IMG/VR virus record: IMGVR_UViG_2541047847_000004
DNA length: 54,394 bases
Reading direction: 5' to 3' (one strand)
From: a virus
Lineage: Duplodnaviria > Heunggongvirae > Uroviricota > Caudoviricetes
Shown here: positions 2,678-48,497 of the stretch, one piece after another
Position numbering within the stretch: the stretch's first letter is position 1
Layout of the letters: the number at the start of each line of letters is the position of its first letter
The notes under the pieces: model-generated
Seen by the model: the letters and a program-made list of their open reading frames with translations, nothing else
Databases searched by the model: none
Told to the model about the DNA's origin: nothing
Made by a program: the position numbers and the translations under genes

Positions 2678-2895
2678 AATTCCTCCAAGGGGTCTAATGG
2701 GTGAAACTTTATCACTCATTCAACCCAGAAGGAAATGTTTTATCTGGATATTTAAACAGTGACTACAACGTAATCTAGCACTGGTGATGCTTTGTTAGGC
2801 ATAGAGAATCATTCTATATACGACTAATGACAGAAAAACAGCAGACAAGTAGTTTGTTCATAAATTAACGCATACAACGTGCCTGCGGTTTTTGA

Positions 2896-3852
<957 letters not shown>

Positions 3853-3909
3853 GTCTTTAAGTGATAAGCATAAACCGCAGCACGATCTTGCATACGACGT
3901 GCTACGGTT

Positions 3910-6053: not shown

Positions 6054-6079
6054 TTTTCACTCCATAAAGTTAAAAGAAA

Positions 6080-29905: not shown

Positions 29906-30555
29906 GCCGCCATCTCCCTGACCAGCTTTTCCGCCTGCAGGCGAACCTGCGCCAGAAACGCCTCACCACATGCCTCAAGTTCATCGCGCCCGATGTAGCT
30001 GATTGCCGGTCCCTTCCAGGTCTTGTCGAAAACAGCAATAGCACCAGCGAAGAAAGCGCCTGTCGGCACCTGCTTCTCATCCTTCGGGATAAACCAGGCA
30101 GGCAGTTCAAAACCAATACGCCCGCGAATAAAAGCAATATGATCTGCATCTTCCGGCCACCACACTTCGCTGGTGGCAGCTTTGATCAGGAAAACATAGC
30201 GCCCGCCCTTATCACGCATGGCACTGGCATGCTTCATGATGTAACGCATGCCGGTGATGTATTGCCCCTCATGCTGACTGGCGCGGCTGTATGGGGGATT
30301 TCCAAAGGCAGCACCTTTAAGCTCCGCAAGGCGTTCTGACCAGTCATGCGCCAGCGCGTTGTCTTCCGCCGTGTAATACGCAGCACATTTGGCGTTATCA
30401 CCGTCAGTGAACAGATCCAGAACAAACGGACCAAACAGGGTGTTAATTCCCCAGAAAATGTTGTCCGGCGTGCGCCACTGATCGCCCACTTCCTTCAGTT
30501 CATGGGCTGGTTTGTTCCGCAGTTCCACCAGCTCCTGGCAATATTTATTACTCAT
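29902..30555 (-). CDS. Phage orphan DNA N6-adenine methyltransferase (Dam-like)
   Basis: GNPPYS (DPPY-type) catalytic motif; start set to ATG at 30555 overlapping the upstream stop (TAATG). Confidence 0.7.
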   Translation of the reverse strand: MSNKYCQELVELRNKPAHELKEVGDQWRTPDNIFWGINTLFGPFVLDLFTDGDNAKCAAYYTAEDNALAHDWSERLAELKGAAFGNPPYSRASQHEGQYITGMRYIMKHASAMRDKGGRYVFLIKAATSEVWWPEDADHIAFIRGRIGFELPAWFIPKDEKQVPTGAFFAGAIAVFDKTWKGPAISYIGRDELEACGEAFLAQVRLQAEKLVREMAA

Positions 30556-31049
30556 TAAGCCCCCACGTAATTCCCTGACAGATACCACTCTTCACCTGAT
30601 GCAGCCCGCTTACTGCTTTTCCGTAAACACCGTTCACGACGCGCCAGAAAATTGTTTCGTTCTGGCTGGGAGTAGCTTTCACGGAATGCCGCCATCCACA
30701 CCGTTGCAGCACGACGGTATAAGCCCCTGGACTCCAGTTCTTCCGCCTGGCGGGTCAGGCACAAAATCACCCGGGGATCGTTAGTGCCGACATAGAAATT
30801 GCGCACAGGTCTGGTTTCACGAACTGGTTGTGGTTCCGGCTCCTGCGCTCTCTCAGTCAGGCGTGGGAAATGTCTGCGTGTATCTCCTTCACAACGGTGA
30901 GCCACACGCCCACTCTGACGTAACTTGCTTGCTGACTGCAGAACGCGCTGCCGTGAGTAACCTGCAAAAGCATCCGCAATGTCTCCGGAAGTACAGCCCG
31001 GATGGGCTTCAATGAATTTCTGAACGTCATTCAAAAGACTCATGATCAC
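30555..31049 (-). CDS. PerC-family (Pch-like) transcriptional regulator
   Basis: C-terminal ...AEELESRGLYRRAATVWMAAF resembles the PerC signature (LE..GLWRRAA..W); assignment from memory. Confidence 0.45.
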   Translation of the reverse strand: MIMSLLNDVQKFIEAHPGCTSGDIADAFAGYSRQRVLQSASKLRQSGRVAHRCEGDTRRHFPRLTERAQEPEPQPVRETRPVRNFYVGTNDPRVILCLTRQAEELESRGLYRRAATVWMAAFRESYSQPERNNFLARRERCLRKSSKRAASGEEWYLSGNYVGA

Positions 31050-31987
31050 CCCCTGAATCCTGCCGGGATCTGGCTGTAGTCCACGTTGTCGTAACTGGCT
31101 TTGAAGTACGGGTCTTCGCGTTTTTCGGTGTACGTGCTGACGGACGGCGATAAGCGCAGGGAAAGCTCATCCCATTTTTCCCGCAACTTCGACGGGCTGA
31201 GCACGTTACGGCACCAGAACGGATCGCGGCTGACGCGGCTGTACATCTCGCAGATTTGTTTGTGAGTACGACCATCCTGCACACACATCAGGCGAATTTC
31301 GTTTGCCCATGCTGTCCAGTTAGGTTCTTTGGGACGAACCACCTCGCCGTCACATTCGGCGGCCTGCTCGTACAGGGCGATGATTTTTTTCCAGAGCCAC
31401 TGTGCGCAGGTCAAATCATCCTGCGTCCCCCACTGGCGCTTTTTAGGGCTGAATACAACCGCATCAGGATGGCGAGTTAAAAAATCCTGTTCATCCGTCT
31501 GCGTGTCCGGTTGCGAAGCGTCCGGACGAGAAGGTTTTTTATCTGACGGATCATGTTTTGATTTTACTGACGGATCCCCGCCAGATTCTGACGGGTGAAA
31601 ACCCGCTTTTTTGCCAGATTTCGACGCATCAAATTTTGACGGGTCAGATTTTGATGCGTCAGATTTTGACGGGTCAGAATCTGACAGTTGAGAAAATGCC
31701 GCTGCCTGAAGCTTCGCAACGTTAAGCTGATAAACATTCGACGCATTGCGGTTACCCTGGCGACGCGCCTTACGCGTTAACCAGCCTTCTGCTTCCAGCC
31801 GTGCGATAGCCGTTCTGACGGTACTCATCCCCGCGCCAATCTGACGGGCAATAGTTTCAATTGATGGCCAGCACACACCTTCGTCATTACTGAAATCAGC
31901 CAGGCGGGCCATAATTGCCACGCTGGATAATTTCATGCCTGACGCAGCGCAACCATCCCATACATAGCCGGTTAATTTAGTGCTCAT
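31046..31987 (-). CDS. Replication initiator (lambda O-like) with internal iterons
   Basis: 313 aa, HTH-like N-terminus, internal Asp/Ser/Lys repeat region encoded by 15-bp iterons. Confidence 0.65.
   Translation of the reverse strand: MSTKLTGYVWDGCAASGMKLSSVAIMARLADFSNDEGVCWPSIETIARQIGAGMSTVRTAIARLEAEGWLTRKARRQGNRNASNVYQLNVAKLQAAAFSQLSDSDPSKSDASKSDPSKFDASKSGKKAGFHPSESGGDPSVKSKHDPSDKKPSRPDASQPDTQTDEQDFLTRHPDAVVFSPKKRQWGTQDDLTCAQWLWKKIIALYEQAAECDGEVVRPKEPNWTAWANEIRLMCVQDGRTHKQICEMYSRVSRDPFWCRNVLSPSKLREKWDELSLRLSPSVSTYTEKREDPYFKASYDNVDYSQIPAGFRG
31540..31690. repeat. Origin-like iteron array inside the O-like gene
   Basis: About eight copies of a ~15-bp unit (consensus agattttgacgggtc), five of them contiguous at 31616-31690. 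Confidence 0.6.
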
Positions 31988-31996
31988 GACCGACCT

Positions 31997-32335
31997 CTAT
32001 TTCCCTGAATTTACGACGAAACTGTTCGAGCGGGCTAAAGCACTCATGCTCATAGCCTTCACGGAGGTAGATAACCCGTTGTGTTTCCGGCTCCCAACGA
32101 ATGACTCTGACGGGCACTCCGTAGTGATCTTTGAACCAGCGGTTAACTTGTCGCAAAGGACTGTCTCCTTCTGCCGGTTGAAATCCCCCACAGCCCACTC
32201 AGCAAAGCTGTGGGTTACAATTTCCCTGTCACCTGGTACATTTACTGCATAGCAATACTCCACCTTCGCTTTTCCACCCGGTACAGGAAGCGCAATCAGT
32301 TGCGAGCGACGGTAGTGTGTTGTTAAACTGTTCAT
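31997..32335 (-). CDS. Hypothetical protein (YmfM-like by size and position)
   Basis: 112 aa; start overlaps upstream stop (coupled). Competes with an overlapping 73-aa ORF in another frame. Confidence 0.35.
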
Positions 32336-32889
32336 GCGTTAGTTTCTCCACAACCAGAAGCAATCGACGCCACGACGCCCGGAGCTGCACACTCGCGGGC
32401 GTCATTACTTTCTGAAACGCAAAAAATTTTGTAGACAAGTGCTGCATGCTCCTGCAGCTTCGAAATTGAGAGGTACAGCTCGTCGTTAATTGCTGTCTTC
32501 TCATGCGGTTCCACTACACCGTCTTCGATTGCCGAACGAATCTGTTTTGAATAACTGCCGATCTGTTCAATGACTTCCAGTAAACGCTGGTTAATATCGG
32601 CATTGTCCACATCCTCGACGTCAGGAAGAGACACAAAGACGCCATTTGCAGACTGCGCCACAGCGTCAGCAATGAAGTGAGTGCCACCAGCACGTTGTAA
32701 AATCATTGCCCATCCCAGCGGGAAAATCTGATCGCCATCGGCACGAAGGCGGTTAAATAATGCGTTCTCTGTTACATCCAGCCACTCAGCAGCTTCAGCG
32801 TAACCCCCCGGCAACGCCGCGATAGTTTTTCTGACAGCTTTCACGTACCACTCAGGCTGTTTTTCCACTTTCCAGTGATGATTACCCAC
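32332..32889 (-). CDS. Early regulatory-region protein (YmfL-like)
   Basis: 185 aa directly downstream of cro-like gene. Confidence 0.5.
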
Positions 32890-33142
32890 GGCTTACCTCC
32901 TGTTCCTGTGGTTTAAACCCATTCTGGTTTTGGCTAGATTGAAAACGTGCCGGATAAAGAATCTGCATTTCGCTGATTTCACCCTTAAAAAAATTGGCCA
33001 GACGTTCTGCAAGATCGATAGATGGAATTTGTTCCAGTCTTTCAATACGACTCAGCGTCGCTGGATTGACCTGAACGCCAGCAGCAACATGCTGCAAAGT
33101 AAATCCGTGCGCCTTACGCACATTCCGTAATGGTGATTGCAT
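32882..33142 (-). CDS. Cro-like HTH regulator (XRE family)
   Basis: 86 aa, HTH GFTLQHVAAGVQVNPATLSRIE; divergent from cI. Confidence 0.7.
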   Translation of the reverse strand: MQSPLRNVRKAHGFTLQHVAAGVQVNPATLSRIERLEQIPSIDLAERLANFFKGEISEMQILYPARFQSSQNQNGFKPQEQEVSRG

Positions 33143-33239
33143 ATGACCTCCACATATTGCGTGATAAGCATATTATTTCACGCAAATATTTTGCGCAAGT
33201 TGATTTGCTTAACGCGCAATAAAGAAATGTAATAAACGC
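33143..33239. promoter_or_regulatory. Genetic switch region with operator-like inverted repeats and divergent promoters
   Basis: TTGCGTGA-N13-TCACGCAA (33157-33185) and TTGCGC-N17-GCGCAA (33191-33219) between cro and cI. Confidence 0.55.
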
Positions 33240-33932
33240 ATGAACATAGGAAACCGAGTCAGACAACTTCGCCAGGCGAAGAACATGAAAATCGCCGATC
33301 TCGCTGAAGCAATAGGAGTGGATGCGGCGAATATCTCACGCCTGGAAACAGGTAAGCAGAAACAATTCACTGAACAAGCCCTGAGTAATATTGCCAGGAG
33401 CTTAGGTGTTGATATTGCTGATCTCTTTACCTCAGACTTCAAAAGTAATACTGTATGTAAAAACAGTATTAGTGAGGATGTTGCGCAGGTGAAGGATGTA
33501 TTCCGTATTGAAATGCTGGATGTCAGTGCCAGTGCGGGAAATGGCCTTATCCAGGGCGGTGATGTCATTGATGTGATTCATGCCATTGAATACAGAACTG
33601 ATAATGCTGTATCGATGTTTGGCGGACGGCCAGCCAATCACATTAAAGTTATCAACGTTCGTGGGGACAGTATGTGTCCAACCATTGAGCCAGGAGATCT
33701 CATCTTCGTTGATGTCAGTATCAATCAGTTTGATGGAGATGGTATCTATGTATTTGGTTTTGATGATAAAATTTATGTCAAACGACTGCAAATGATACCT
33801 GACAAACTACTGGTGATTTCTGATAACCAGATTTACCGTGAATGGGGAATTACCAGCGAAAATGAACACCGGTTTATGGTCTTTGGAAAGGTCTTAATCA
33901 GCCAGTCACAAACCCTTAAGCGACACAATTAA
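33240..33932 (+). CDS. CI-like repressor (HTH + S24 LexA-type autopeptidase)
   Basis: 230 aa; N-terminal HTH, C-terminal VRGDSMCPT...KR Ser/Lys dyad. Confidence 0.85.
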   Translation: MNIGNRVRQLRQAKNMKIADLAEAIGVDAANISRLETGKQKQFTEQALSNIARSLGVDIADLFTSDFKSNTVCKNSISEDVAQVKDVFRIEMLDVSASAGNGLIQGGDVIDVIHAIEYRTDNAVSMFGGRPANHIKVINVRGDSMCPTIEPGDLIFVDVSINQFDGDGIYVFGFDDKIYVKRLQMIPDKLLVISDNQIYREWGITSENEHRFMVFGKVLISQSQTLKRHN

Positions 33933-33952: not shown

Positions 33953-33976
33953 AGCCACCCAAAGGTGGCTTTTCAT
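33953..33976 (+). terminator. Intrinsic terminator after cI
   Basis: agccacc-caa-ggtggct followed by tttcatt. Confidence 0.55.
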
Positions 33977-33986
33977 TACCCTTTAA

Positions 33987-34045
33987 ATTGCATATCTCGC
34001 AACAAAAACACTTGCATAATGCGCAACTTCATTTTATCTTTCTTT
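33987..34045 (+). promoter_or_regulatory. Second operator/promoter region (PL-like)
   Basis: TTGCATATCTCGCAA and TTGCATAATGCGCAA resemble the cro/cI operator half-sites; TTGCAT...TTATCT spaced like -35/-10. Confidence 0.35.
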
Positions 34046-34634
34046 CCAGACAAACAAACAAGGTACTAACAAAATTTGGTTGTAACACGGCGTATGGCAC
34101 ATGCGTCGTTAGCGGTCTGGGGACGTTAAAGGGGACAATCCACTCCTTGCTCGGGCAAACAAACCAGGTAGCCGGAATGTGCAAGTCAATGATGATGCTG
34201 ATAAGACGCCTAACCAGCGTGGCGATTCGGTTTGACGCCTGGGAAGAGACCAGGGTGCAACGATGAGGGCATTTATGGAGCCGCGACAAAGTGTGGTGCT
34301 GTAACTGGCTAAGTGCTCTCAGCGTTGTGGTAATCCGCGAAATGGCGCGGCGGTAAGTATGGCGGGGTTACTCTTTCCCCGTTGAGGACACCGGATTGTC
34401 AGGTTGACCATACGCCTGAGTGACAAGCCCACCACAACAGCCACTGCTTTGGCGGTACCAGTTTGTACACTTGCTTCCGGCTGGTACCGCTCTTTTTACA
34501 AAACAGAGAAGAGCATCACCGGACGACGGGCTCATAACCCAATCCATCCGGGCGGCTGCCACCGCAGGTGTTCTTCTCTGTTTTGTGGAGAAACCAACCG
34601 ACCTTGCAGGGTCGATATGATGAGGAGCAGCAAA

Positions 34635-34997
34635 ATGGCTAGCGAACGCAGTACTGATGTGCAGGCATTTATCGGGGAGCTGGACGGCGGCGTATTTGAA
34701 ACCAAAATCGGCGCAGTTCTCAGTGAAGTCGCTTCCGGTGTGATGAACACAAAAACCAAAGGTAAGGTCTCACTCAACCTGGAAATCGAACCATTTGATG
34801 AGAACCGTGTGAAAATCAAACACAAACTCTCATATGTTCGCCCGACTAACCGCGGGAAAATTTCCGAAGAAGACACCACCGAAACGCCGATGTATGTCAA
34901 TCGCGGTGGTCGCCTGACTATTCTGCAGGAAGACCAGGGACAATTACTGACTCTTGCCGGTGAACCTGACGGAAAACTACGCGCAGCAGGTCATTAA
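34635..34997 (+). CDS. YfdP-like hypothetical protein
   Basis: 120 aa from ATG 34635 (AGGAG 7 nt upstream); long TTG-initiated upstream extension in the track rejected. Confidence 0.45.
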   Translation: MASERSTDVQAFIGELDGGVFETKIGAVLSEVASGVMNTKTKGKVSLNLEIEPFDENRVKIKHKLSYVRPTNRGKISEEDTTETPMYVNRGGRLTILQEDQGQLLTLAGEPDGKLRAAGH

Positions 34998-35062
34998 TAT
35001 CGTTCTTAATTAACTGATTATTTATCTCATCACTGAATATCTTTATATAGTGAGGACTTATT

Positions 35063-35887
35063 ATGTCTCAGAACTTAGACGCAACCGCAATTAATCAAAT
35101 CCATGCCCTTATTTCTGCTCAGGGTGTTAATGAAATTATCAGTAAGATTGGTGCCGATGCTGTGGCATTGCCTGAGAATTTCCGCATTCATGATCTGGAA
35201 AAATTTAATTTAAATCGCTTCCGTTTCCGTGGCGCGCTTTCCACTGCCAGCATCGATGATTTTACCCGTTATTCTAAAGATCTTGCGGATGAAGGCACCC
35301 GCTGCTTTATCGATGCCGATAATATGCGTGCCGTCAGTGTGCTTAACCTGGGTACTATTGATGAGCCTGGTCACGCAGATAACACCGCCACTCTCAAACT
35401 GAAAAAGACAGCACCGTTCTCTGCTCTGTTGTCTGTTAACGGCGAGCGTAACTCCCAGAAGTCACTGGCAGAATGGATTGAAGACTGGGCCGACTACCTT
35501 GTGGGCTTTGATGCTAATGGTGATGCCATTCAGGCAACAAAAGCGGCTGCGGCAGTCCGTAAAATCACGATTGAAGCAAACCAGACCGCTGATTTTGAAG
35601 ACAATGACTTCAGCGGCAAACGCTCCCTGATGGAGTCTGTCGAAGCGAAGACCAAAGATATTATGCCAGTGGCATTTGAATTTAAATGCGTTCCGTTTGA
35701 AGGCCTGAAAGAACGTCCGTTTAAATTACGCCTCAGCATTATCACTGGCGATCGTCCTGTACTGGTTCTGCGCATTATTCAGCTGGAAGCAGTGCAGGAA
35801 GAAATGGCTAACGAATTTCGTGATCTGCTTGTTGAGAAATTCAAGGACAGCAAAGTAGAAACCTTTATTGGTACTTTTACCGCCTGA
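35063..35887 (+). CDS. YfdQ-like protein (DUF2303-type)
   Basis: 274 aa, same length and neighbourhood as CPS-53 YfdQ; assignment from memory. Confidence 0.5.
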
Positions 35888-36014
35888 TTTCATTACTGCA
35901 AATGCCCCTGCGGGGGCATTTATGGAAACGTAATTGACTCAATAATCGCCGGATGGTGAGGGCTTTCTTTTACCAGAATTCAGCGCGGTGCAGCGCATAT
36001 ACGTGGAGAACAAA

Positions 36015-36539
36015 ATGTCATTTATTAAAACTTTTTCCGGGAAGCATTTTTATTATGACAGGATAAATAAAGACGACATCGTTATTAACGATATCGCGGT
36101 TTCTCTTTCAAATATCTGTCGCTTTGCAGGACATCTTTCACATTTCTACAGCGTCGCCCAACATGCGGTGCTTTGCAGCCAACTGGTACCGCAGGAATTT
36201 GCTTTTGAAGCGTTAATGCATGATGCAACAGAAGCGTATTGCCAGGACATCCCGGCGCCACTGAAACGCCTTCTTCCTGACTATAAACGGATGGAAGAAA
36301 AAATAGACGCCGTAATCCGTGAGAAATACGGGTTACCCCCGGTTATGAGTACGCCCGTGAAATATGCCGATCTCATCATGCTGGCAACCGAACGCCGCGA
36401 TCTCGGGCTTGATGATGGCTCTTTCTGGCCCGTACTGGAAGGTATCCCGGCAACAGAGATGTTCAAAGTTATTCCACTGTCGCCAGGCCATACCTATGGG
36501 ATGTTTATGGAACGCTTTAAAGAGTTAACTGAGTCGTAA
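36015..36539 (+). CDS. HD-domain phosphohydrolase (YfdR-like 5'-deoxynucleotidase)
   Basis: H...HD...E...D metal-binding pattern (FAGHLSHFYSVAQHAV...MHDATEAY...D); start at ATG 36015 with GGAGA upstream. Confidence 0.6.
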   Translation: MSFIKTFSGKHFYYDRINKDDIVINDIAVSLSNICRFAGHLSHFYSVAQHAVLCSQLVPQEFAFEALMHDATEAYCQDIPAPLKRLLPDYKRMEEKIDAVIREKYGLPPVMSTPVKYADLIMLATERRDLGLDDGSFWPVLEGIPATEMFKVIPLSPGHTYGMFMERFKELTES

Positions 36540-36647: not shown

Positions 36648-37514
36648 ATGAATCAAAATCCATTCTCATTCTATGACTTTCTTGGATATTTAATACCAGG
36701 TGGTTTTTTTATCCTATTAATGTATTTCTGTGGTTTGACATTCGATCTAGATATTGTTATTGACTTAAGTGAATTACTCAGAGGTCAAAGTCAAATCTTT
36801 GGCATTTTGAACTACGCTTCAATAGTTATTATATCTTATATAGCTGGACATTTTATTTCTATCACGTCAGCATTTTTTATCGAAAAATACATGAATAAAG
36901 AATTAGGATATCCTTCCAAATATCTATTTAAAAAATTGATAGATACCTCAGAAAGCATTTGTAGCCCATCATGCGATGAGAGAAGCGCTGATAAAAAAAC
37001 AAAAATAAAGAATCGCATAATCAAATGCGTATTATGTCCAATAATACTATGGGATTTTATAACACAAAAACTATGTTATTCTCAATCTCTACCATTTCAT
37101 TTAGCTAATACAACATGGTTAATGATCAAAGAAGGTTATGAGAAAAAGTTCATAACAAATCGCCAATTATTACAAGATAAAAACGGACTTGATGATGATC
37201 TCTTCAGATTGGCATATCATTATGTTTATGAGTTTTCAAAACAACATCAAACAAAAATTCAAAACTATGTTGCATTATATGGTTTTTGCAGAAACATATG
37301 TTTAATCTTTATAATTTCATTTTGGGTATCAGTTCCAACCTTTATTTATCGATTATGTACTCATAGTGATTATCTTTATAGTTTACTTTCAATAATGCTT
37401 AGCTTTTTCTTCGTCTATGTTTTCTATGTTGGTTTTGTTAAATTTTATAGAAGATATACTTTAGAAGTATTAATGGCATTTGCTGTACTTCAAAGTAACG
37501 ACACTATTCGTTAA
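36648..37514 (+). CDS. Polytopic membrane protein of unknown function (AT-rich moron)
   Basis: 288 aa from ATG 36648 (GGAG upstream); at least four hydrophobic helices; markedly lower GC than flanking phage genes. Confidence 0.5.
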   Translation: MNQNPFSFYDFLGYLIPGGFFILLMYFCGLTFDLDIVIDLSELLRGQSQIFGILNYASIVIISYIAGHFISITSAFFIEKYMNKELGYPSKYLFKKLIDTSESICSPSCDERSADKKTKIKNRIIKCVLCPIILWDFITQKLCYSQSLPFHLANTTWLMIKEGYEKKFITNRQLLQDKNGLDDDLFRLAYHYVYEFSKQHQTKIQNYVALYGFCRNICLIFIISFWVSVPTFIYRLCTHSDYLYSLLSIMLSFFFVYVFYVGFVKFYRRYTLEVLMAFAVLQSNDTIR

Positions 37515-37516: not shown

Positions 37517-37762
37517 ATGTTGCTCCCGTGTGCAGACGGGATAATGGAGAAACGTATGCTGAACCTCGATTGTGTTCCTATCTCAACTTATTGCAAAGAA
37601 ACTGGCGAAACTCCTGAAGCAATAAACAAACGTGTACAGCGCGGTGTTTGGCGTGAAGGTGTTCAGGTTTTAAAGGTTGAAGGCGTTAAGGAGAGGTGGA
37701 TTGATCTTAGTGAGGTTGCAAAATGGGCCAGACAAAACTGCTCAAACTACCGCGCGGCGTAA
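37517..37762 (+). CDS. xis: Excisionase-like protein
   Basis: Small basic ORF directly upstream of and overlapping int; alternative start at 37556 (GGAG + 6 nt). Confidence 0.5.
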   Translation: MLLPCADGIMEKRMLNLDCVPISTYCKETGETPEAINKRVQRGVWREGVQVLKVEGVKERWIDLSEVAKWARQNCSNYRAA

Positions 37763-38895
37763 CAATCAGGAAACACCGCCAGGGAGAAACGATCAATATA
37801 ACTTTCACCTACAAAGGAGTTAGATGTCGTGAGCCGCTTTCCAATCTGGAAGTAACACCAAAGAACATTAAATACGCCGAGCGTACACTCGGCGAAATCC
37901 ATAATAAGATCGAAAGGGGAACATTCATTTATGCAGAATATTTTCCCCGTTCTGCTCGTTTGAAAATTTTTGGTAATGCTGCTGCAGGCAAAACGGTAAA
38001 GGTGTACCTGGACGAATATCTTGAAATCTGCGAAACAAGAAAACTTTCACCCTCTACGATTGGTGGCTATAAAAAATGCCGTAGTGCGTTAGCCTCACTT
38101 CACATTTGCCCTGCAAGTGAATTAACACCAGCAACCCTGAAAGCGTGGATTCAAAGCCAGAAAACAACCTTAAAAACCATTCGCAACCAGTTATCTTTCC
38201 TACGGTCAGCACTTGATGAAGCCGTGACCGATGGGGTACTTCAAATTAACCCCGTATCGTTAGTAACAGCTTCGCGCTACCAAAGTGATAAGTCAGAAGC
38301 AGAAAGCAGCTATGTGGTTGATCCGCTATCACCAGCAGAAGTTGATGCATTACTAGCAGCAGCCGGAAACAAACAATGGGAAAATCTGTTCCGGTTCGCC
38401 ATACATACAGGCCTGCGTAGTTCTGAATTATGTGCCCTACGATGGCATGATATCGACTTTGTTGGAAAAACAGCCCATGTTCAGAGCGCAAGTGTTGTCG
38501 GAGTTATCAAAGGAACAAAGACAAAAGCCGGTACCCGTAAAGTTGAACTGACTGAAGAAGCAATGTTGGCGTTGATAAACCAGAAGCCATTTACATTCAT
38601 GAAGGATGCTACTGTCTTTGAAGATCCAAAGACCAATAAACCCTGGGCAAGTGCTGATGCAATTAGGAAAAAAGCATGGGTGCCAACATTGCGAAAAGCA
38701 GGTATTCGTTACAGAAACCCATATCAAACCAGGCATACATTCGCCACCAGCCATATCAGCCGGGGAGCAAACCTGTTTTGGCTTGCGGCTCAAATGGGCC
38801 ATAAAGGGCCTGAAATGTTATTCAGGCACTATGGACAATACTTGAAAGAGTATGATGGGAGGGCAAGTATCAAGGATAAAAAGGCTTTATTTTAA
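37723..38895 (+). CDS. int: Tyrosine integrase (prophage)
   Basis: 390 aa; C-terminal R...H..R...Y catalytic pattern (HTFATSHISRGANLF...LGHKGPEMLFRHYGQY). Confidence 0.85.
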   Translation: MGQTKLLKLPRGVTIRKHRQGETINITFTYKGVRCREPLSNLEVTPKNIKYAERTLGEIHNKIERGTFIYAEYFPRSARLKIFGNAAAGKTVKVYLDEYLEICETRKLSPSTIGGYKKCRSALASLHICPASELTPATLKAWIQSQKTTLKTIRNQLSFLRSALDEAVTDGVLQINPVSLVTASRYQSDKSEAESSYVVDPLSPAEVDALLAAAGNKQWENLFRFAIHTGLRSSELCALRWHDIDFVGKTAHVQSASVVGVIKGTKTKAGTRKVELTEEAMLALINQKPFTFMKDATVFEDPKTNKPWASADAIRKKAWVPTLRKAGIRYRNPYQTRHTFATSHISRGANLFWLAAQMGHKGPEMLFRHYGQYLKEYDGRASIKDKKALF

Positions 38896-39504
38896 GTCAT
38901 TATGCCAATCGTCTACTGTTTGAAACCAAATTTTTAACCTTTGCATAAAGGTACGATCCTTTTTGGGAGGGTGGTACCTTTGAAAAGAAGTATGTAACGC
39001 TTCGATAACTCCCATACAAGCATCAATTACTTCTTGTGCTTTAACCGGGCGATCGGTATCTGAAAGCTTGTGAGCGACCTCACAATCCAGAGTTGCTTTC
39101 TCTAGTACAGATGAGAACACCTCGTCAGGTATATACAGTCCTCTGCTTTCCAAAATGCAAATCAGTTTGGAAACTTGTTGAGCTTTAGCCAAGATAGTTA
39201 ACAAGTATGAAACAGAAGCCTTTGTTCTATCCTTTTGCAACCTTAACAATCGATGCTTTGATGCTCTAATTTTAGGTTGAGTTGTCTGACTGAGCCAATA
39301 GTTAGAAGAAATATCAGAAATTTCAATAACTAACTTTGAAATAGCATCAATAATTGATTTCGATTCAGAACGTGTCGCCAGTTTTACAGAATTATTGTAC
39401 GCAACTCGCCATCCAATGAAAACTAAGCAGACGCTAACTACTGTGATACACCACGAATACTGTCCTATTTGTGCTACTAATGACATTGGTTCCGTACTGA
39501 TCAA
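38887..39504 (-). CDS. Membrane-anchored protein, third gene of GHKL operon
   Basis: 205 aa, single N-terminal TM helix (WCITVVSVCLVFIGW) then largely helical soluble part; 10-nt gap to upstream gene; 3' end overlaps int 3' end. Confidence 0.45.
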   Translation of the reverse strand: MISTEPMSLVAQIGQYSWCITVVSVCLVFIGWRVAYNNSVKLATRSESKSIIDAISKLVIEISDISSNYWLSQTTQPKIRASKHRLLRLQKDRTKASVSYLLTILAKAQQVSKLICILESRGLYIPDEVFSSVLEKATLDCEVAHKLSDTDRPVKAQEVIDACMGVIEALHTSFQRYHPPKKDRTFMQRLKIWFQTVDDWHNDLK

Positions 39505-39514
39505 CTATCGCCTC

Positions 39515-39841
39515 TTATACTCTTTCTGGTTGTGCTAAATCAATAAATTTATCAATCTGTTCTTTGTAGAACGGAACATCACTTTTTATAATCAAACGTG
39601 CTTTAACGTTGGCTTTAGGTATCCCTTCCTTACGGATGAGACCTCCAAACGCCTCTTCTAAGAAAGAGGAACCAACACCCAGTGCTATACCGCGAAAATC
39701 AACCACAATCTCCTGTTCAGTACCCTTCAGCGCAGGCACCAAAAACTCTCTACGAAATCTTTCCGCACTGTGTGGGCTATCCGTTGTGTAACGTCCGAAA
39801 GGTGTTCTGGAGAACTCCTTCGCTATGACGATATTTCTCAT
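39515..39841 (-). CDS. Small soluble protein, possibly STAS-like (DUF4325-type)
   Basis: 108 aa; 4-nt gap from upstream GHKL gene; family guess from memory of sequence pattern, unverified. Confidence 0.4.
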   Translation of the reverse strand: MRNIVIAKEFSRTPFGRYTTDSPHSAERFRREFLVPALKGTEQEIVVDFRGIALGVGSSFLEEAFGGLIRKEGIPKANVKARLIIKSDVPFYKEQIDKFIDLAQPERV

Positions 39842-39845
39842 AAAA

Positions 39846-40757
39846 TCATCTCCTGGGAACCAGCGACCATTGTAGTAAAGTACCCGGTATGTACTCAGCT
39901 AGCTTCTCACATCGAGGACTACTGTCATTAGAATTATAGCTATAACGAGCCCTTCCTGTTAGTATCAGAAGTGTCTCATTATCCTCACAACCTGCCCCAA
40001 TAGGTCTCTTGATATCTTCAGAGCCATTTCCCCGTCCGGAACCAACAAAGCGGGATTCCCCTACTAACATAGCTCTTTCCACAGAAGATACTTCGTTTTG
40101 AATGCTATGACCATCACCATTAGGCACGAAACTTCTATAAATCCCCAATCCAAGGTCACAAACGATAAAAACGACTTTATTTTCATCACGATTGAACCAA
40201 GCGCACTGCCACCATCGTTTACCTTTGAGAAGCTGAATATCTGACTCGAACCCCTCATCTTCATACGCATGATGAGAAACATTGAGCAAAGCTTCACTAA
40301 TCGCTGTCAGCAGTAAGCCTAACTGTTCATTATTAAGCAGAGCACTTTTCTGCAGCATGAGTACTGTTTCAACAATATGCTCGTAAGGTTCGACAGCTGA
40401 CTGAAAGTATCGTTCCTCCCTCGTAAGTGCATTCAGTTTCTCTTCTGTGCCAGCAAGCAAAGCACGAGCAAGTCCAGTACCAACGATCCATCTATGCCCA
40501 GATGGGTTATCATCCTTTTTAGGCCATTTAAAACGTATAAAATTAGGGTCCCGGGTTAAAAATTGAGCTCTATTTACTATGGCAAAGAACAGTACCGATG
40601 CCGCAGCTGAGGCAAATTTTACCTTGGACAAATCAACTATAACTCGACCTTTATTTTTTACTCCAATCGATTCAATCGAGTTGATGAAGTTCAATGTCCC
40701 AGCCCTAGAATCATCTGAGTAAATGCAAAATTTGCTTGGGGGTACCAGTATGGTCAT
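39846..40757 (-). CDS. GHKL-superfamily ATPase (histidine-kinase-like ATP-binding domain) with unassigned N-terminal region
   Basis: N-box SEALLNVSHHAY, G1 box VCDLGLGI, G2 box GSGRGNG in order in the C-terminal half; no HisKA/dimerisation domain or receiver visible. Confidence 0.55.
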   Translation of the reverse strand: MTILVPPSKFCIYSDDSRAGTLNFINSIESIGVKNKGRVIVDLSKVKFASAAASVLFFAIVNRAQFLTRDPNFIRFKWPKKDDNPSGHRWIVGTGLARALLAGTEEKLNALTREERYFQSAVEPYEHIVETVLMLQKSALLNNEQLGLLLTAISEALLNVSHHAYEDEGFESDIQLLKGKRWWQCAWFNRDENKVVFIVCDLGLGIYRSFVPNGDGHSIQNEVSSVERAMLVGESRFVGSGRGNGSEDIKRPIGAGCEDNETLLILTGRARYSYNSNDSSPRCEKLAEYIPGTLLQWSLVPRR

Positions 40758-41125: not shown

Positions 41126-42319
41126 GTGGCACGTACAACACGCCCTCTTACTAACACTGAACTATCACGTGCTAAAGCAACTGAAAAGGATCTAACGCTA
41201 CATGATGGTGATGGGCTTTTTCTACTCATAAAAACGAACGGAAGGAAGTTGTGGCGTTTCCGATACCAGAAGCCTGTATCAAAACAGAGAACCATGATTA
41301 GTTTAGGAACGTTCCCCGCCCTATCTCTGGCTGAGGCCAGAAACGTGCGTGCTGAGTATCTTTCCTTATTAGCCCGGGGTATTGATCCACAAACATACAG
41401 TAAGCAAGTCTCAGAACATCAACAGATTGCGATTGATAGTATTTTTTCAAAAGTTGCCACAAATTGGTTTGCCATAAAAAGCAATAACGTCACACCTGAT
41501 TATGCAAAGGATATATGGCGATCCTTAGAGAGGGACATTTTCCCTGCTATCGGTGAGATTCCTGTTCAGGAAATAAAAGCCCGCACATTAATTGAAGCCC
41601 TAGAGCCAATTAAAGCTCGTGGGGCACTTGAGACTGTTCGTCGTTTAGTACAACGTATTAATGAAATTATGATTTATGCTGTTAATACTGGTCTGATAGA
41701 TGCTAACCCTGCTTCAGGCATTGGTATGGCATTTGAAAAACCTAAAAAACAGCACATGCCAACGCTTAGACCTGAAGAATTACCGAAACTCATGCGTTCA
41801 ATAACAATGTCTAATTTATCTATTCCAACTCGTTGTTTGATTGAATGGCAACTCTTAACACTTGTACGCCCTGCAGAAGCTTCCAATGCAAAGTGGATAG
41901 AGATCGATTTCGAAGCTAAACTATGGATAATACCAGCCAATAGAATGAAGGCAAAGCGGGAACATATTGTTCCATTATCACTTCAGACATTAGATATTCT
42001 TGAAATTATGAAGCCAATCAGTTCACATCGAGAATATATTTTTCCTAGCAGGAATAACCCCAATCAACCAATGAACAGTCAGACGGCAAATGCAGCCTTA
42101 AAGCGCATCGGTTATGGTGGTAAGTTGGTTGCACACGGACTGCGTTCGATAGCAAGTACAGCAATGAATGAAGCTGGTATAAATCCAGATATTATCGAAG
42201 CAGCACTTTCCCATTGTGATAAAAATGAGGTTAGAAGAGCATATAATCGAACAACCTACTTGGAACAAAGAAAAGAGCTTATGAATTGGTGGGGTAGTTT
42301 CATTTCAAAAAACAAATAA
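41126..42319 (+). CDS. int: P4-type tyrosine integrase
   Basis: 397 aa from GTG; N-terminus MARTTRPLT...LHDGDGLFLLIKTNGRKLWRFRY typical of P4-family integrases next to ssrA. Confidence 0.9.
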   Translation: MARTTRPLTNTELSRAKATEKDLTLHDGDGLFLLIKTNGRKLWRFRYQKPVSKQRTMISLGTFPALSLAEARNVRAEYLSLLARGIDPQTYSKQVSEHQQIAIDSIFSKVATNWFAIKSNNVTPDYAKDIWRSLERDIFPAIGEIPVQEIKARTLIEALEPIKARGALETVRRLVQRINEIMIYAVNTGLIDANPASGIGMAFEKPKKQHMPTLRPEELPKLMRSITMSNLSIPTRCLIEWQLLTLVRPAEASNAKWIEIDFEAKLWIIPANRMKAKREHIVPLSLQTLDILEIMKPISSHREYIFPSRNNPNQPMNSQTANAALKRIGYGGKLVAHGLRSIASTAMNEAGINPDIIEAALSHCDKNEVRRAYNRTTYLEQRKELMNWWGSFISKNK

Positions 42320-42329
42320 GGATATAGTG

Positions 42330-43445
42330 ATGAATAATAAAGATTTTCCATGCAAAGCCTCAAATATCTATGATAAAAATATAAATTTTTTATTTGGCTC
42401 AGGCTCCTCTGCTTCATATATTCCTACTCTCTATCTAGATAAAAACACTACTTATGAAACATTACTTACACATGAGGATTGTGAGGGTGTCAAGGACTTC
42501 ATATTATGTTCTTATTTCAATAATATCATTAGAAAAACATTTTGTGTTAAACCTAATAGTGAAGACAAAAAATATAATTCTACTTTAGCAAACTATAGCT
42601 ACTTTATTGATGAACTAATCAAATTATTAGAGAAAAAAGGGGCAAATCAAATAAGGCGAGCGAATATTTTTACAACAAATTATGATCTTTTTTTCGAAAC
42701 TGCGGCTGATGATATTTTAAATAATAAAACATTTCATTTCAATGACGGTGGTCTAGGTTTCAAAAGCCGGAAATTGAACATTAGTAATTTTCATATTACT
42801 GCTTGGCATCAAGGTACGCATGATATGTACAAACATGAAATTCCAACAGTAAACTTAATAAAAATGCATGGTTCTGTTTCTTGGTGTAGAGATATTAATG
42901 AAACGATTAGTATTAATTACACTCAAGAAGAACCACCAAAGTTTAGACTAGATACAAAAAAAGACATTAATGATTTAGTCACCACCTTAAACGAAACAAG
43001 CGATAATCTCGTTAGTTATTTAAATTTATCTACAAGCGATCAAGAAACACTTCAAGAATTTAAATCTTATTACAACAACTTAGCTATAGTTAGCCCAACT
43101 AAAGAAAAATTTTCTGAAACTGTTTTTCAACAACATTATTACCAATGTTTACGATTGCTAAGTTATGAATTAGAGAAACCACAAACTGTATTAATTTGTT
43201 TTGGTTTTTCTTTTCAAGATGAACACATACGTGAGATTATAAAAAGATCATTAAGTAACCCTACTCTTAAGGTCTTTGTTTTTTGCTACTCAAAATCCAG
43301 CATGGAAAGTATACAGCACATTATCAATGACCAACGAATAACCTATATTCTTCCTATAGAAGATGATCATACAATTTCATTTAAACCGTTTATAGATAGA
43401 GTATTTAGATCTGAACACGGAGATTGGATTACATGGAAGAACTAA
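42330..43445 (+). CDS. SIR2-family NADase-like protein (defence pair with HerA)
   Basis: FLFGSGSS (Rossmann GxGxS), TTNYD and KMHGSVSW motifs characteristic of SIR2 domains; AT-rich; start at ATG 42330. Confidence 0.7.
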   Translation: MNNKDFPCKASNIYDKNINFLFGSGSSASYIPTLYLDKNTTYETLLTHEDCEGVKDFILCSYFNNIIRKTFCVKPNSEDKKYNSTLANYSYFIDELIKLLEKKGANQIRRANIFTTNYDLFFETAADDILNNKTFHFNDGGLGFKSRKLNISNFHITAWHQGTHDMYKHEIPTVNLIKMHGSVSWCRDINETISINYTQEEPPKFRLDTKKDINDLVTTLNETSDNLVSYLNLSTSDQETLQEFKSYYNNLAIVSPTKEKFSETVFQQHYYQCLRLLSYELEKPQTVLICFGFSFQDEHIREIIKRSLSNPTLKVFVFCYSKSSMESIQHIINDQRITYILPIEDDHTISFKPFIDRVFRSEHGDWITWKN

Positions 43446-45205
43446 TTGTTGGTAATGTTACCCAAATAAAGGGCACAACAGTAAGGGCCAAAATCAATCA
43501 TGACTTTTTTCAGTCAACATACTTTCATAAAGGTAAAATACTACGAGGTATCTCTATAAATGAATTTGTTTTGATTAAAAAAGGTTATCACGATATCGTC
43601 GGAAAGATTATTGGTGAAGAAATTGTTGAAAACATCAATATTAGAAGCGATGAAATTGAACAAAAAAAATATGACCGTTTTGTAGAACTGAATATTTTAG
43701 GGTATTTTTTTGAGAGTTCATTTTATTCCGGTATAAAATTTTTACCAATGATAAATGACAGCTTACACTTAATTTCAGACGAGAAGATATCAGAAATATA
43801 TAAGTTTAGCAAAAACACTAAAGCACCTTTAATAAACATAGGGAAATCTATGTTAGAGGAGTTGCCAATTAACATACCAATAAATGGTATTTTTAATTCA
43901 CACATAGGCATATTTGGAAACACTGGAAGTGGCAAGTCCAACACTCTTGCAAAACTTTATCACTCTCTAATAAACCTTATAACAACAAAAGAAAGAGTTA
44001 TATCAAAATCAAGTTTTGTTTTGATTGATTTTAATGGTGAATACAGCACATTTGCTACGTCATTTCCAGATTTGTGCGAACAAGTCAATCTCAACACAAA
44101 GAATTCCGGTGATAAACTAACTTTCACTGATGATGAATTTTGGGATGATGAATTATTATCGGTATTGTTTTCTGCAACTGAAAAAACTCAAAAGCCATTT
44201 CTTAGTCATTTAATTAAAAATAGAGAAAAATATAATGGTAAATTGGAGGATTACTTACAAACAACTATCCACAGTATGTTTTCTCCTAATCCACACAGGG
44301 AAACAATAAATTTATTAAAAAGCCTTGCCCCTTACTTTTCAGAGAGAGCACAGGGTAAAATACTTGAAGAGTTATCACAATTCTCATGGCATTCTGGGCA
44401 AAATAAGTATTTGCACTCAAAATACAACTTCATTGATAAAATGGAAGATGCTTTACAGGCTTTAGATGCAACATATAAATCCAAGTTTAAGTTAAACAGC
44501 GTTTTTGATGAAGTTGCAATCCGATCTATTCTACAACTAATTAATTCAGTATCACGTAATTATGTACAATATGATCATATATATCCGCTAATTAATAAAA
44601 TAACGGCAATGACTCCTGCCCTATCCAAAGTAATTAATATCAGAAACGAAACAAAAAATAAAAAACCTATATATATAGTGTCATTAAAAGAGTGCAATCA
44701 ATTAATCAAAAAAACCATTCCAATGATGCTTGCAAAATGTTCATTCTTAGAGCACAAGTCATCTAAAAATACAAAGGAAAGCTTCCACCTAATTATAGAT
44801 GAAGCACACAACATATTGTCTGAAACATCTGTCAGAGAGGCGGAAACATGGAAAGATTATAGGCTTGAGTTATTTGAGGAAATAATAAAAGAGGGAAGGA
44901 AGTTTGGGTTCTTCGTTACAATTTCGAGTCAACGACCTTTTGACATCTCTCCCACAATTGTTTCCCAACTTCATAATTATTTTATTCATCGATTAGTGAA
45001 CGAAAATGATTTGTTTTTGTTAAAAAATACTTTAAGCACCCTTGATGCGGCATCAAGATCACTAATTCCAACACTTCCTCCTGGTGGGTGTATAGTTTCA
45101 GGAACAGCTTTCCACACCCCATTACTTGTTCAAATCGACAGATTAGCTGAGGAAAATGCTCCTAACAGCGATACTCTTGATTTAGAAAAATTGTGGGATA
45201 TTTAA
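43433..45205 (+). CDS. herA: HerA-like ATPase
   Basis: Walker A GNTGSGKSN and Walker B HLIIDEAHN; overlaps SIR2 stop; start at ATG 43433 (track TTG 43424). Confidence 0.75.
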   Translation: MEELIVGNVTQIKGTTVRAKINHDFFQSTYFHKGKILRGISINEFVLIKKGYHDIVGKIIGEEIVENINIRSDEIEQKKYDRFVELNILGYFFESSFYSGIKFLPMINDSLHLISDEKISEIYKFSKNTKAPLINIGKSMLEELPINIPINGIFNSHIGIFGNTGSGKSNTLAKLYHSLINLITTKERVISKSSFVLIDFNGEYSTFATSFPDLCEQVNLNTKNSGDKLTFTDDEFWDDELLSVLFSATEKTQKPFLSHLIKNREKYNGKLEDYLQTTIHSMFSPNPHRETINLLKSLAPYFSERAQGKILEELSQFSWHSGQNKYLHSKYNFIDKMEDALQALDATYKSKFKLNSVFDEVAIRSILQLINSVSRNYVQYDHIYPLINKITAMTPALSKVINIRNETKNKKPIYIVSLKECNQLIKKTIPMMLAKCSFLEHKSSKNTKESFHLIIDEAHNILSETSVREAETWKDYRLELFEEIIKEGRKFGFFVTISSQRPFDISPTIVSQLHNYFIHRLVNENDLFLLKNTLSTLDAASRSLIPTLPPGGCIVSGTAFHTPLLVQIDRLAEENAPNSDTLDLEKLWDI

Positions 45206-45225
45206 TATCGCTACGCGCAGTGCTT

Positions 45226-45262
45226 TCCCCGCCTCGCCCGCACGCTTTGCGGGGCGGTTTTA
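45226..45262 (+). terminator. Intrinsic terminator after herA
   Basis: ccccgc...gcgggg stem followed by cggtttta; two further GC-rich hairpins at 45286-45309 and 45340-45374. Confidence 0.5.
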
Positions 45263-45402
45263 ATGCAGTTGCACTGACACGCTCAGACCGCGCCGGGAAT
45301 GGCGCGGTCTGCAGAAAATGAGGCAGGGAAACGCATGCAAAGCCATGCACCTTATCGATGCATGGCTTTTTTCAGTAAAAACAGGCGGATTTTCGGGAAA
45401 TT

Positions 45403-45975
45403 TTACACAGACTGACGTGATGCCAGTTGCGCACTTTTACGCGAAAAAATCATGTTCTGCGCAGGGGTAAATTTTTCACGGCTGTCGTCCACCGAAGCCG
45501 CGTCAGGCCTGAATCCGATGGTCGTTAAAATGTCGCTATCCTGTGCGGAATAATTAATTTTTTCCCCCTTCGCAAGCCAGGACAGAAGGGCTTCACGCAG
45601 GGCATCTGTGGCACGCTGTATGGCACAGTTTCGGGCAATGGCCGTCAGCTCACTGTAGCCCATCAGCTCCGGTGCCAGTGCCGCCGCCAGTGCTGTGCCG
45701 TGCTGCTGCATAAAATCATTCAGCCGGTCGCGGATGCTGATGTGCTGAACGGCTTCATGCGAACGAATATAACGACCAGCGGCCTGATTCACCTGCCATT
45801 TTCTGACTTCGATAATATTGCGTAATTCGTCCAGGCGACTGACGTTTCTGCCTTCTCCTGACAGAAGCCGCAGATATTCCTGTTCGGCCGCTGCCAGCTC
45901 ATTTTTGCGTTGCAGCCATGCTGCTTTGTTATTCTGACAGGTGTCAAAGGCCTGCTGTAAGGCTGTGCTTTCCAT
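45403..45975 (-). CDS. psu: Polarity suppression protein Psu
   Basis: 190 aa, same length and position as P4 Psu in the sid-delta-psu block. Confidence 0.75.
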   Translation of the reverse strand: MESTALQQAFDTCQNNKAAWLQRKNELAAAEQEYLRLLSGEGRNVSRLDELRNIIEVRKWQVNQAAGRYIRSHEAVQHISIRDRLNDFMQQHGTALAAALAPELMGYSELTAIARNCAIQRATDALREALLSWLAKGEKINYSAQDSDILTTIGFRPDAASVDDSREKFTPAQNMIFSRKSAQLASRQSV

Positions 45976-48099: not shown

Positions 48100-48497
48100 T
48101 GATGCCCGCTCTGCAAAAACGCCCTTTTTCTGGCTTGCCTTTTTCCGGCATTTGCGGATATAGTTTTTCCGCTGCCGCAAAATCGGCAGCCGGGCGTGGA
48201 AACCCGAGCAATTCACAGGCGACATATGACGCGCCATGCGTCTTTTTTTGTGTCGCAATCAACGCCACAGAGCGCCAGATTATGGTGTGGTGTGTGGTCA
48301 GTCGTGCAGATGGCATTCCGTGCATCCTGCCCGCGTCCGCTCATTATGCCGCAGAGTCAATGGTAGCTCAGGCGGGGCAGCCTCCGGGCTGGCCGGTATC
48401 CTGTGAAGCCGGTATTTCCACCCCCGTCTGGGCTATCGCCATCGAGCGTGGAAACTCCGGCGATAGCGTTATTTGCTATTCACAGGAGGCTGCCATC

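Follow-up and report, generated by a model that had tools for sequence, protein, structure and literature searches.

The yfdP, yfdQ and yfdR genes and their K-12 counterparts

Within a viral stretch of 54,394 nucleotides, hereafter the window, we focused on three genes, yfdP, yfdQ and yfdR, and on the features that surround them. In order along the window, the locus contains:

33240-33932, + strand: cI/LexA-like repressor with HTH and S24 peptidase domains (Pfam Peptidase_S24 E 6.5e-19, HTH_3 E 1.1e-10)
33953-33970, + strand: terminator-like hairpin followed by a T-run, at the end of the repressor transcript (terminator scan; -11.8 kcal/mol, z -3.8)
33988-34027, strand not assigned: two 16-nt operator-like repeats, TTGCATATCTCGCAAC and TTGCATAATGCGCAAC, 24 nt apart (direct-repeat family D1)
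34083-34260, + strand: candidate structured RNA, called block A, of about 178 nt within a 600-nt leader (covariation and homologous segments)
34493-34591, + strand: long near-perfect hairpin with an outer stem of about 25 bp, just upstream of yfdP (MFE -59.7 kcal/mol, z -7.5)
34635-34997, + strand: yfdP, 120 aa, with a GAGGAG Shine-Dalgarno sequence 7 nt upstream
35063-35887, + strand: yfdQ, 274 aa, DUF2303 family
35901-35920, + strand: GC-rich hairpin AAUGCCCC-UGCG-GGGGCAUU in the yfdQ-yfdR spacer (fold of 35885-35960, z -2.5; no clear U-run)
36015-36539, + strand: yfdR, 174 aa, HD-domain phosphohydrolase
36648-37514, + strand: moron encoding a 288-aa predicted membrane protein of low GC content (0.35-0.38; PHROG 12528, E 9e-174)
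37517-37762, + strand: excisionase (PHROG 2917, E 8e-45)
37723-38895, + strand: tyrosine integrase (Pfam Phage_integrase and Arm-DNA-bind_2)

The yfdP, yfdQ and yfdR genes lie on one strand, and their order, sizes and spacers of 65 and 127 nt are equal to those of CPS-53 in E. coli K-12. BLASTP against the K-12 proteins gave 119 of 120 identical residues for YfdP and b2359 (99%), 272 of 274 for YfdQ and b2360 (99%), and 166 of 173 for YfdR and b2361 (96%). At the nucleotide level, window positions 34616-36534 align with K-12 2473585-2475503 over 1919 nt without a gap and at 96.4% identity. We placed the yfdR start at ATG 36015, which is preceded by a GGAGA Shine-Dalgarno sequence and is also the start in RefSeq; the list of open reading frames has an upstream GTG at 35988. 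The C-terminal ~25 residues of YfdR diverge between the window and K-12 and mark a mosaic boundary. The first-pass annotation had matched three co-oriented genes to the CPS-53 yfdPQR cluster by size and order, and the comparison bears this out, with open reading frames at exactly these limits. A lack of similarity to YfdPQR, the outcome it had named as speaking against the match, is decisively contradicted by protein identities of 96-99%. The similarity lies far beyond chance, and the identity is essentially irrefutable from these alignments. We conclude that yfdP, yfdQ and yfdR of the window are orthologues of the CPS-53 genes. They are already known genes with nothing new in their identity; both the HD domain of YfdR and its binding to DnaA are in the literature, and 3022 of the 5426 complete E. 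coli genomes carry the cluster (RefSeq annotation yfdP / YfdQ family / 5'-deoxynucleotidase).

Early-left operon and a candidate leader RNA

The gene order in the window is cI, terminator, OL/PL, a 600-nt leader, yfdP, yfdQ, yfdR, the membrane moron, xis and int. The repressor is accompanied by cro-like and cII-like genes (Pfam), and its counterpart in a near-identical E. coli F8 prophage is annotated as "LexA family protein ymfK". A third member of the repeat family lies between cI and cro, at 33205-33220, and the two repeats at 33988-34027 may constitute the OL/PL region of the early-left operon. In the annotation of phage Ayreon a promoter stands at the position of these repeats, and terminators stand at the positions of both the hairpin at 33953-33970 and the one at 35901-35920. 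From this arrangement, yfdPQR appear to be the first three genes of a cI/OL-controlled, PL-type early-left operon in an intact lambdoid prophage. Phages LLS, ST64B and phiNP share the same early-left layout (PMC12315714). As in the window, the yfdPQR cluster comes first after the repressor in ST64B (gp35-37), LLS (gp37-39), phiNP and mEp460/cdtI/Ayreon, and no canonical Rec module is present. These phages differ from one another in the genes that follow yfdR, and the YfdPQR-type proteins of phiNP are just ~59-67% identical to those of the window.

The K-12 locus differs from the window on both sides of the three genes. Downstream of yfdR, CPS-53 carries yfdS, yfdT, ypdJ and torI, whereas the window carries the 288-aa membrane ORF, xis and int. 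The moron thus occupies the slot of K-12 yfdS/yfdT; among 80 related loci, just 2 have the moron and 56 carry yfdS and/or yfdT. Upstream, CPS-53 lacks the repressor, PL, the operators and nearly all of the leader, with a deletion junction that corresponds to window positions 31754|34616. CPS-53 of K-12 derives by deletion from a prophage similar to that in the window, and its yfdPQR genes are a promoter-less remnant. This status matters for the interpretation of K-12 phenotypes, and the window provides the native regulatory setting of yfdPQR in an intact prophage.

The leader holds two structured segments. Block A is ~80% identical to unannotated segments of phiV10-like phages and of P1/P7, where the segment lies between tRNA-Ile and ban. 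In the alignment, seven base pairs in three helices have compensatory changes, 97.4% of cells are paired versus 26-47% when slid, and the junctions are invariant. Copies of the RNA occur in phiV10/epsilon15-like phages and in the leader of the P1/P7 ban operon. The covariation argues for block A as a candidate structured RNA. It has no RefSeq annotation. Neither leader nor cluster matched an Rfam family at the gathering score, and at E <= 10 all matches were of chance level; an ARAGORN scan of the window for tRNA genes was negative, and motif strings of the leader RNA retrieved only unrelated primer matches from paper texts. Homology to the HK022 put RNA was also considered and is unsupported, because the leader and the PL region of HK022 are not similar in sequence. 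The second segment, the hairpin at 34493-34591, was equalled in stability by none of 200 shuffled sequences. The part of the leader that contains it is common to ST64B, LLS and phiNP; in phiNP and ST64B, where it precedes the yfdP homologue, it is 85% identical.

YfdR and the YfdP-YfdQ pair

The third gene had been claimed to carry an HD metal-binding signature, and the ligands are indeed present. In the 174-aa numbering, the H...HD...D motif of YfdR comprises H50, H69-D70 and D119, with E73 and D78 in addition, and its H, HD and D positions align with those of the solved HD protein Atu1052 (PDB 2gz4, E 3.6e-12). YfdR also matches PHROG 318, "deoxyribonucleoside 5' monophosphate phosphatase", with an E-value of 4e-108. 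Phage T5 encodes Dmp, a pre-early 5'-deoxyribonucleotidase, that is, an early phage enzyme that dephosphorylates dNMPs; Dmp is likened to YfdR by activity class, through the PHROG 318 label, and is set alongside it by description only. YfdR shares its HD fold class and H...HD...D metal site with YfbR, the housekeeping HD-domain 5'-deoxynucleotidase of E. coli. The match to the YfbR-like family PF12917 (E 3e-5) spans residues 50-113 of the 183-aa ORF that begins at 35988, or 41-104 in the 174-aa numbering, and its 24.2 bits fall just under the cut-off of 25.9. Against the NCBIfam YfbR equivalog NF003009, YfdR scored 19.8 bits for a cut-off of 122. Because YfdR falls under both cut-offs, we regard it as a related HD protein rather than a YfbR orthologue. 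It further differs from YfbR in binding DnaA (PMC4776307), and its nucleotide affinities are given as much below those of YfbR in PMC4776307, which cites Zimmerman 2008 for this point. The first-pass annotation had named a 5'-deoxynucleotidase role for YfdR, and the RefSeq product name agrees with it. The literature describes YfdR as a low-affinity HD phosphohydrolase of the 5'-deoxynucleotidase type.

The other two proteins belong to families of their own. YfdP matches PHROG 204 (E 1.2e-49), and its close homologues carry the precomputed family PF27127; YfdP itself had no Pfam match because the Pfam set that was searched lacked the PF27127 model. YfdQ matches PF10065 (DUF2303) over positions 2-269 of the 269-position profile, with an E-value of 2e-92 and 309.7 bits for a cut-off of 26.6. 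DUF2303 comprises ~1800 clusters at 50% identity, and PHROG 210 is, with PHROGs 204 and 318, among the family matches of the cluster. YfdQ also matches PDB 9o7m, "YfdQ Protein" (E 1.2e-44), an entry with 36 chains from a Xanthomonas CP2-like phage. A literature search found no paper for 9o7m, and the CP2 neighbours, a YfdP homologue and a DUF1351-like protein, have no PDB entries. Fold searches, in whose libraries 9o7m did not appear, returned no structural relatives that indicate a role for YfdP or YfdQ.

In all 12 loci that we tested, a YfdP homologue lay directly upstream of a YfdQ homologue. The pair occurs in phages of Xanthomonas (CP2), Vibrio, Halomonas, Thalassomonas and Acinetobacter, where it adjoins SSB, Erf/RecT, exonuclease and DnaQ-like genes. 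Of 9 distant phages, 8 have the pair but lack YfdR, and across the 12 loci YfdR accompanies the pair only in enterobacterial lambdoids. Conversely, YfdR-family genes occur without the pair in 337 phage records. These neighbourhoods show that the strictly conserved unit is YfdP-YfdQ rather than YfdPQR, that YfdR is a separable add-on, and that the "module" is composite.

Possible roles of the cluster

Published work connects the cluster to replication initiation in K-12. The first-pass annotation had mentioned an interaction of overexpressed YfdR with DnaA; binding of the two is documented by Noguchi & Katayama 2016 (PMC4776307): YfdR binds DnaA domain I in a Phe46-dependent manner and competes partly or moderately with DiaA and DnaB. 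DiaA is a DnaA domain I-binding regulator, and YfdR uses the same DnaA surface, at Phe46 (PMC4776307). DiaA, however, belongs to an unrelated protein family, and its effect on initiation is stimulatory, in contrast to the inhibition caused by excess YfdQRS or YfdQRT. In K-12, multicopy yfdQ and yfdR together with yfdS or yfdT inhibit initiation at oriC; yfdQ is genetically required along with yfdR, and yfdP is dispensable (PMC4776307). Purified YfdR by itself had no inhibitory effect on initiation in vitro, and deletion of yfdQRST left initiation in K-12 unaffected (PMC4776307). We found no homologues of YfdS, YfdT or TorI anywhere in the window (phmmer, E <= 0.01), and the published inhibiting gene set is therefore incomplete in this prophage. 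The proposed modulation of host replication or nucleotide pools by the module during early infection is reasonable, but it transfers only in part to a prophage that lacks yfdS and yfdT.

Taken together, we consider it highly probable that yfdPQR are the CPS-53 orthologues in their native early-left operon and that they act on host DNA metabolism. Upon induction or infection, the genes would be expressed immediately from PL. Their products would then act on host DNA metabolism and may dampen DnaA-dependent initiation, dephosphorylate dNMPs, or both, while the phage would replicate through its own initiator. Within this scheme, YfdP and YfdQ would be a two-protein cassette in its own right, associated with neighbourhoods of phage replication and recombination genes. 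YfdQ probably builds a large homo-oligomer, as suggested by the 36 chains of its homologue in 9o7m, and YfdR would be an addition specific to enterobacterial lambdoid phages.

One alternative is that YfdP-YfdQ, perhaps with YfdR, makes up an unrecognised module for recombination or repair, which takes the place of Red/Erf-type functions in lambdoids without a Rec module. No recombinase is recognisable between cI and int in the early-left operon of the window's prophage, yfdPQR occupies the position of lambda exo/bet/gam, the pair neighbours Erf, exonuclease and SSB in the CP2 and Vibrio phages, and a yfdQ deletion is described as weakly MMS-sensitive in work cited by PMC4776307. ArgO145 and CP2, however, carry complete Rec modules in addition to the pair, and we rejected a hidden Rec module because of this co-occurrence. 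A hidden recombinase has also been explicitly argued to be unlikely (PMC12315714), and the fold searches linked neither YfdP nor YfdQ to proteins of the Rad52, RecT, Erf or Gp2.5 type. We therefore regard this alternative as quite improbable. Marginally less probable still is that yfdPQR are stress-tolerance genes expressed from the prophage to the benefit of the lysogen, rather than lytic early genes. The cluster has been kept in the degraded CPS-53, and studies cited in PMC4776307 describe higher H2O2 sensitivity of K-12 yfdQ and yfdS deletions and higher MMS sensitivity of the yfdQ deletion. In the intact prophage, however, the operator repeats that follow the repressor gene precede yfdPQR, which should therefore be silent in the lysogen. 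Since a deletion has removed cI, PL and the leader from the K-12 copy, the K-12 phenotypes may reflect an abnormal promoter context. Apparently virulent phages also carry the pair, CP2 and Vibrio podophages among them.

A stronger competitor, though still an unlikely one, is that YfdP-YfdQ acts as an autonomous early cassette in host takeover, by counter-defence or otherwise, for example as a large oligomeric decoy or sponge, with YfdR as an unrelated neighbouring enzyme of the nucleotide pool. The occurrence of the pair without YfdR in most of the distant phages, and of YfdR-family genes without the pair in hundreds of phages, is consistent with this idea. So is the high-order YfdQ assembly in 9o7m; in addition, YfdP and YfdQ resemble no known enzyme or DNA-metabolism protein, and anti-defence genes would typically be placed as these are, first in an early operon and within an accessory region. 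Yet inhibition of initiation in K-12 needs yfdQ together with yfdR (PMC4776307), and our literature search found no experimental link of YfdP or YfdQ to defence systems. YfdP, YfdQ and YfdR also match no PADLOC model, although PADLOC covers defence and not anti-defence.

Our preferred reading, action on host DNA metabolism from the early-left operon, leaves room for two further suggestions, which we advance jointly and tentatively, as somewhat doubtful: that YfdP-YfdQ is a so far undescribed machine with which phages take over the host or counter its defences, and that the leader RNA is a new cis-acting regulator of early operons or a stable phage RNA. As an example of such a role, the RNA could be a processive antiterminator in phages without N. 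Further work is best directed at the leader RNA and the YfdP-YfdQ cassette. Elsewhere in the operon, the moron at 36648-37514 gave a weak PADLOC match to Csx27 (E 1.4e-5).

The yfdPQR genes and their control region

The first-pass annotation placed three co-oriented genes at 34635-36539 and matched them in size and order to the yfdP-yfdQ-yfdR cluster (b2359-b2361) of CPS-53, a cryptic prophage of E. coli K-12. The coordinates were exact, and all three genes lie on the plus strand. Rather than an absence of similarity, pairwise protein comparison with K-12 gave near-identity (YfdP, 119/120 residues; YfdQ, 272/274; YfdR, 166/173). Window 34616-36534 is 96.4% identical to K-12 at the nucleotide level, without gaps over 1919 nt, and the intergenic spacers have the same lengths in both (yfdP-yfdQ, 65 nt; yfdQ-yfdR, 127 nt). 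We conclude that these genes are orthologues of K-12 yfdPQR. Mechanical ORF calling starts yfdR at a GTG (35988); RefSeq uses the ATG at 36015, which has a GGAGA ribosome-binding site. Of 5426 complete E. coli genomes searched by megablast, 3022 carry the cluster, its genes nearly always labelled 'protein YfdP', 'YfdQ family protein' and 'yfdR: 5'-deoxynucleotidase'; the first-pass name for YfdR is the one in use. The genes are thus already known and annotated; the original finding is correct, its interpretation is supported, and only the leader RNA and the YfdP-YfdQ cassette have potential novelty. The features of the region are as follows:

32332-32889, minus: cII-like gene
32882-33142, minus: cro-like gene
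33240-33932, plus: cI/LexA-like S24 repressor gene
33953-33970: terminator-like hairpin
starts at 33988 and 34012: two operator-like 16-mers, repeating a motif of the cI-cro spacer
between the 16-mers and yfdP: leader of about 600 nt
about 34083-34260, plus: block A, a candidate structured RNA in the yfdPQR operon leader
34493-34591, plus: long hairpin, outer stem of about 25 bp, -59.7 kcal/mol, z -7.5
34635-34997, plus: yfdP, 120 aa
35063-35887, plus: yfdQ, 274 aa
35901-35920: hairpin between yfdQ and yfdR
36015-36539, plus: yfdR, 174 aa
36648-37514, plus: low-GC ORF of 288 aa, predicted multi-pass membrane protein, between yfdR and xis
downstream of the membrane ORF: xis, then int

These features form the immunity and early region of an intact lambdoid prophage. 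From the order repressor, terminator-like hairpin, operator-like repeats, leader, yfdPQR, xis and int, we infer that yfdPQR are transcribed as the first genes of a PL-equivalent operon. The stretch from cI to int lacks a recombination module, and in this the phage fits PMC12315714's 'no Rec module' type. Of 80 closely related IMG/VR loci, just two have the 288-aa membrane ORF, which is therefore probably a moron; it matched PHROG 12528 (unknown function) and, weakly, the PADLOC model for Csx27 (E 1.4e-5). It occupies the slot of yfdS/yfdT in K-12, at a GC of 0.35-0.38.

Three window segments are collinear with CPS-53: 5351-6659 (tfaS-yfdK-yfdL), 30289-31754 (yfdM-N-O) and 34616-36534 (yfdPQR). 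The three abut one another in K-12; CPS-53 has therefore arisen by deletion from a prophage resembling the one in the window. In K-12, yfdO is joined to yfdP by a deletion with its junction at window 31754/34616, which removed cII, cro, cI, PL and all of the leader except the last ~20 nt. This loss left K-12 yfdPQR without their native control region, and the yfd phenotypes observed in K-12 would arise from an abnormal promoter context.

YfdR and the YfdP-YfdQ pair

The HD metal-binding signature noticed in the third gene is real: H50, H69-D70, E73, D78 and D119 of YfdR align with their counterparts in the solved HD protein Atu1052 (PDB 2gz4, E 3.6e-12). YfdR matched PHROG 318, 'deoxyribonucleoside 5' monophosphate phosphatase' (E 4e-108). 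Its score fell slightly under the Pfam YfbR-like cut-off and far under the NCBIfam YfbR equivalog cut-off, and therefore YfdR is an HD relative of the housekeeping 5'-deoxynucleotidase YfbR, not its orthologue.

[quoted passage not shown] The interaction with DnaA given in the first-pass annotation was accurate: only YfdR bound DnaA, via domain I and dependent on Phe46 (PMC4776307). In the same study competition of YfdR with DiaA and DnaB was moderate, purified YfdR on its own had no inhibitory effect on initiation in vitro, and deletion of yfdQRST left initiation unchanged. [quoted passage not shown] The earlier suggestion that the module acts on host replication or nucleotide pools is thus reasonable, with support confined to overexpression data. 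One or both of yfdS and yfdT follow yfdR in most of the 80 related loci. Using phmmer, we found no homologue of YfdS, YfdT or TorI anywhere in the window, and the published replication-inhibiting set is therefore incomplete in this prophage.

YfdQ matches DUF2303 along its whole length (Pfam E 2e-92; PHROG 210), and YfdP matches PHROG 204. Homologues of YfdP are assigned to PF27127, a newer Pfam family outside the Pfam copy searched. At 50% identity the DUF2303 family falls into ~1787 clusters, almost all of them of single-domain proteins of 265-285 aa. We sampled distant DUF2303 homologues from Xanthomonas phage CP2, E. coli ArgO145, Thalassomonas BA3, three Vibrio phages, Halomonas H4907, Acinetobacter Mystique and Citrobacter phiNP, and sought YfdP homologues with profiles built from our own alignments (12 loci). 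A YfdP homologue lay upstream of the YfdQ homologue in 12/12 loci, as its direct neighbour save for one interposed 66-aa ORF; CP2 ORF38 is 39% identical to YfdP. Among these loci YfdR was confined to enterobacterial lambdoids, and 337 phage records spanning many hosts contain YfdR-family HD hydrolases without the pair. The yfdPQR 'module' is thus composite, with a YfdP-YfdQ core and a separable HD gene. In the distant phages the pair neighbours genes for SSB, Erf/RecT, exonuclease, DnaQ-like and DUF1351 proteins; at CP2 2639-3892 it adjoins a DUF1351-like protein, Erf, exonuclease and SSB.

PDB entry 9o7m, 'YfdQ Protein', is a homologue of YfdQ from a Xanthomonas phage resembling CP2 (alignment E 1.2e-44). 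The single entry holds 36 chains, which implies a large assembly. Our literature search found no paper for 9o7m, and the phage neighbours of this homologue are not in the PDB. AlphaFold2 models (pLDDT 77 for YfdQ, 71 for YfdP) gave no convincing fold relatives, and PADLOC gave no match for YfdP, YfdQ or YfdR.

We propose that yfdPQR would be expressed from PL immediately upon induction and that the products would perturb host DNA metabolism to the phage's benefit, with YfdP-YfdQ as a separate two-protein function. It is plausible, as a tentative alternative, that YfdP-YfdQ form an autonomous counter-defence or takeover cassette. Complete Rec modules occur alongside the pair, which makes a hidden recombination module unlikely; PMC12315714, which reports no known function for yfdP and yfdQ, also regards them as unlikely hidden recombinases. 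Stress genes that benefit the lysogen are unlikely as well, given that the prophage is intact and repressed.

Conserved non-coding blocks in the leader

The leader consists of conserved non-coding blocks arranged as a mosaic. Block A is ~80% identical to unannotated P1 and P7 segments between tRNA-Ile and the ban helicase gene, and is similarly close to tRNA-adjoining segments of phiV10/epsilon15-like phages. It was present in 1833/5426 E. coli genomes, P1-like plasmids included, and annotated in none; Kosakonia, Citrobacter, Buttiauxella and gut metagenomes carry it too. In a 14-sequence alignment, 97.4% of cells were paired in a four-helix structure, compared with 26-47% when partners were slid, and compensatory changes affected 7 base pairs in three of the four helices. 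In 500 shuffles, the observed measures were reached 0 to 3 times. The fourth, long-range helix is invariant and hence affords no covariation test. Block A matched no Rfam family, its motifs did not occur in the paper texts searched, and it showed no similarity to the HK022 PL region.

The 34493-34591 hairpin lies directly upstream of the yfdP ribosome-binding site, in a leader block common to phiNP, ST64B and LLS at ~85%. The lambda N leader hairpin is a target of RNase III cleavage. By analogy, the hairpin here resembles that type and may serve as a control element acting through RNase III or on translation.

Genes beyond int

Three minus-strand ORFs at 38887-40757 directly follow the prophage integrase, and a P4-like satellite element lies beside the prophage:

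39515-39841, minus: STAS-like DUF4325 protein
39846-40757, minus: protein with a weak histidine-kinase-like ATPase (HATPase) match
41126-45975 and 48158-48443: P4-like satellite element
41126-42319: tyrosine integrase of the satellite
42327-45205: SIR2-HerA anti-phage defence pair, very low GC (PADLOC HerA E 1e-192, SIR2 E 4e-65)
45403-45975, minus: Psu of the satellite

The STAS-like and HATPase genes may form a small pair with an accessory or defence-like role; PADLOC gave no match for them in window 38887-40757. The satellite also carries the RNAs C4 antisense, c4-a1b1 and isrK.
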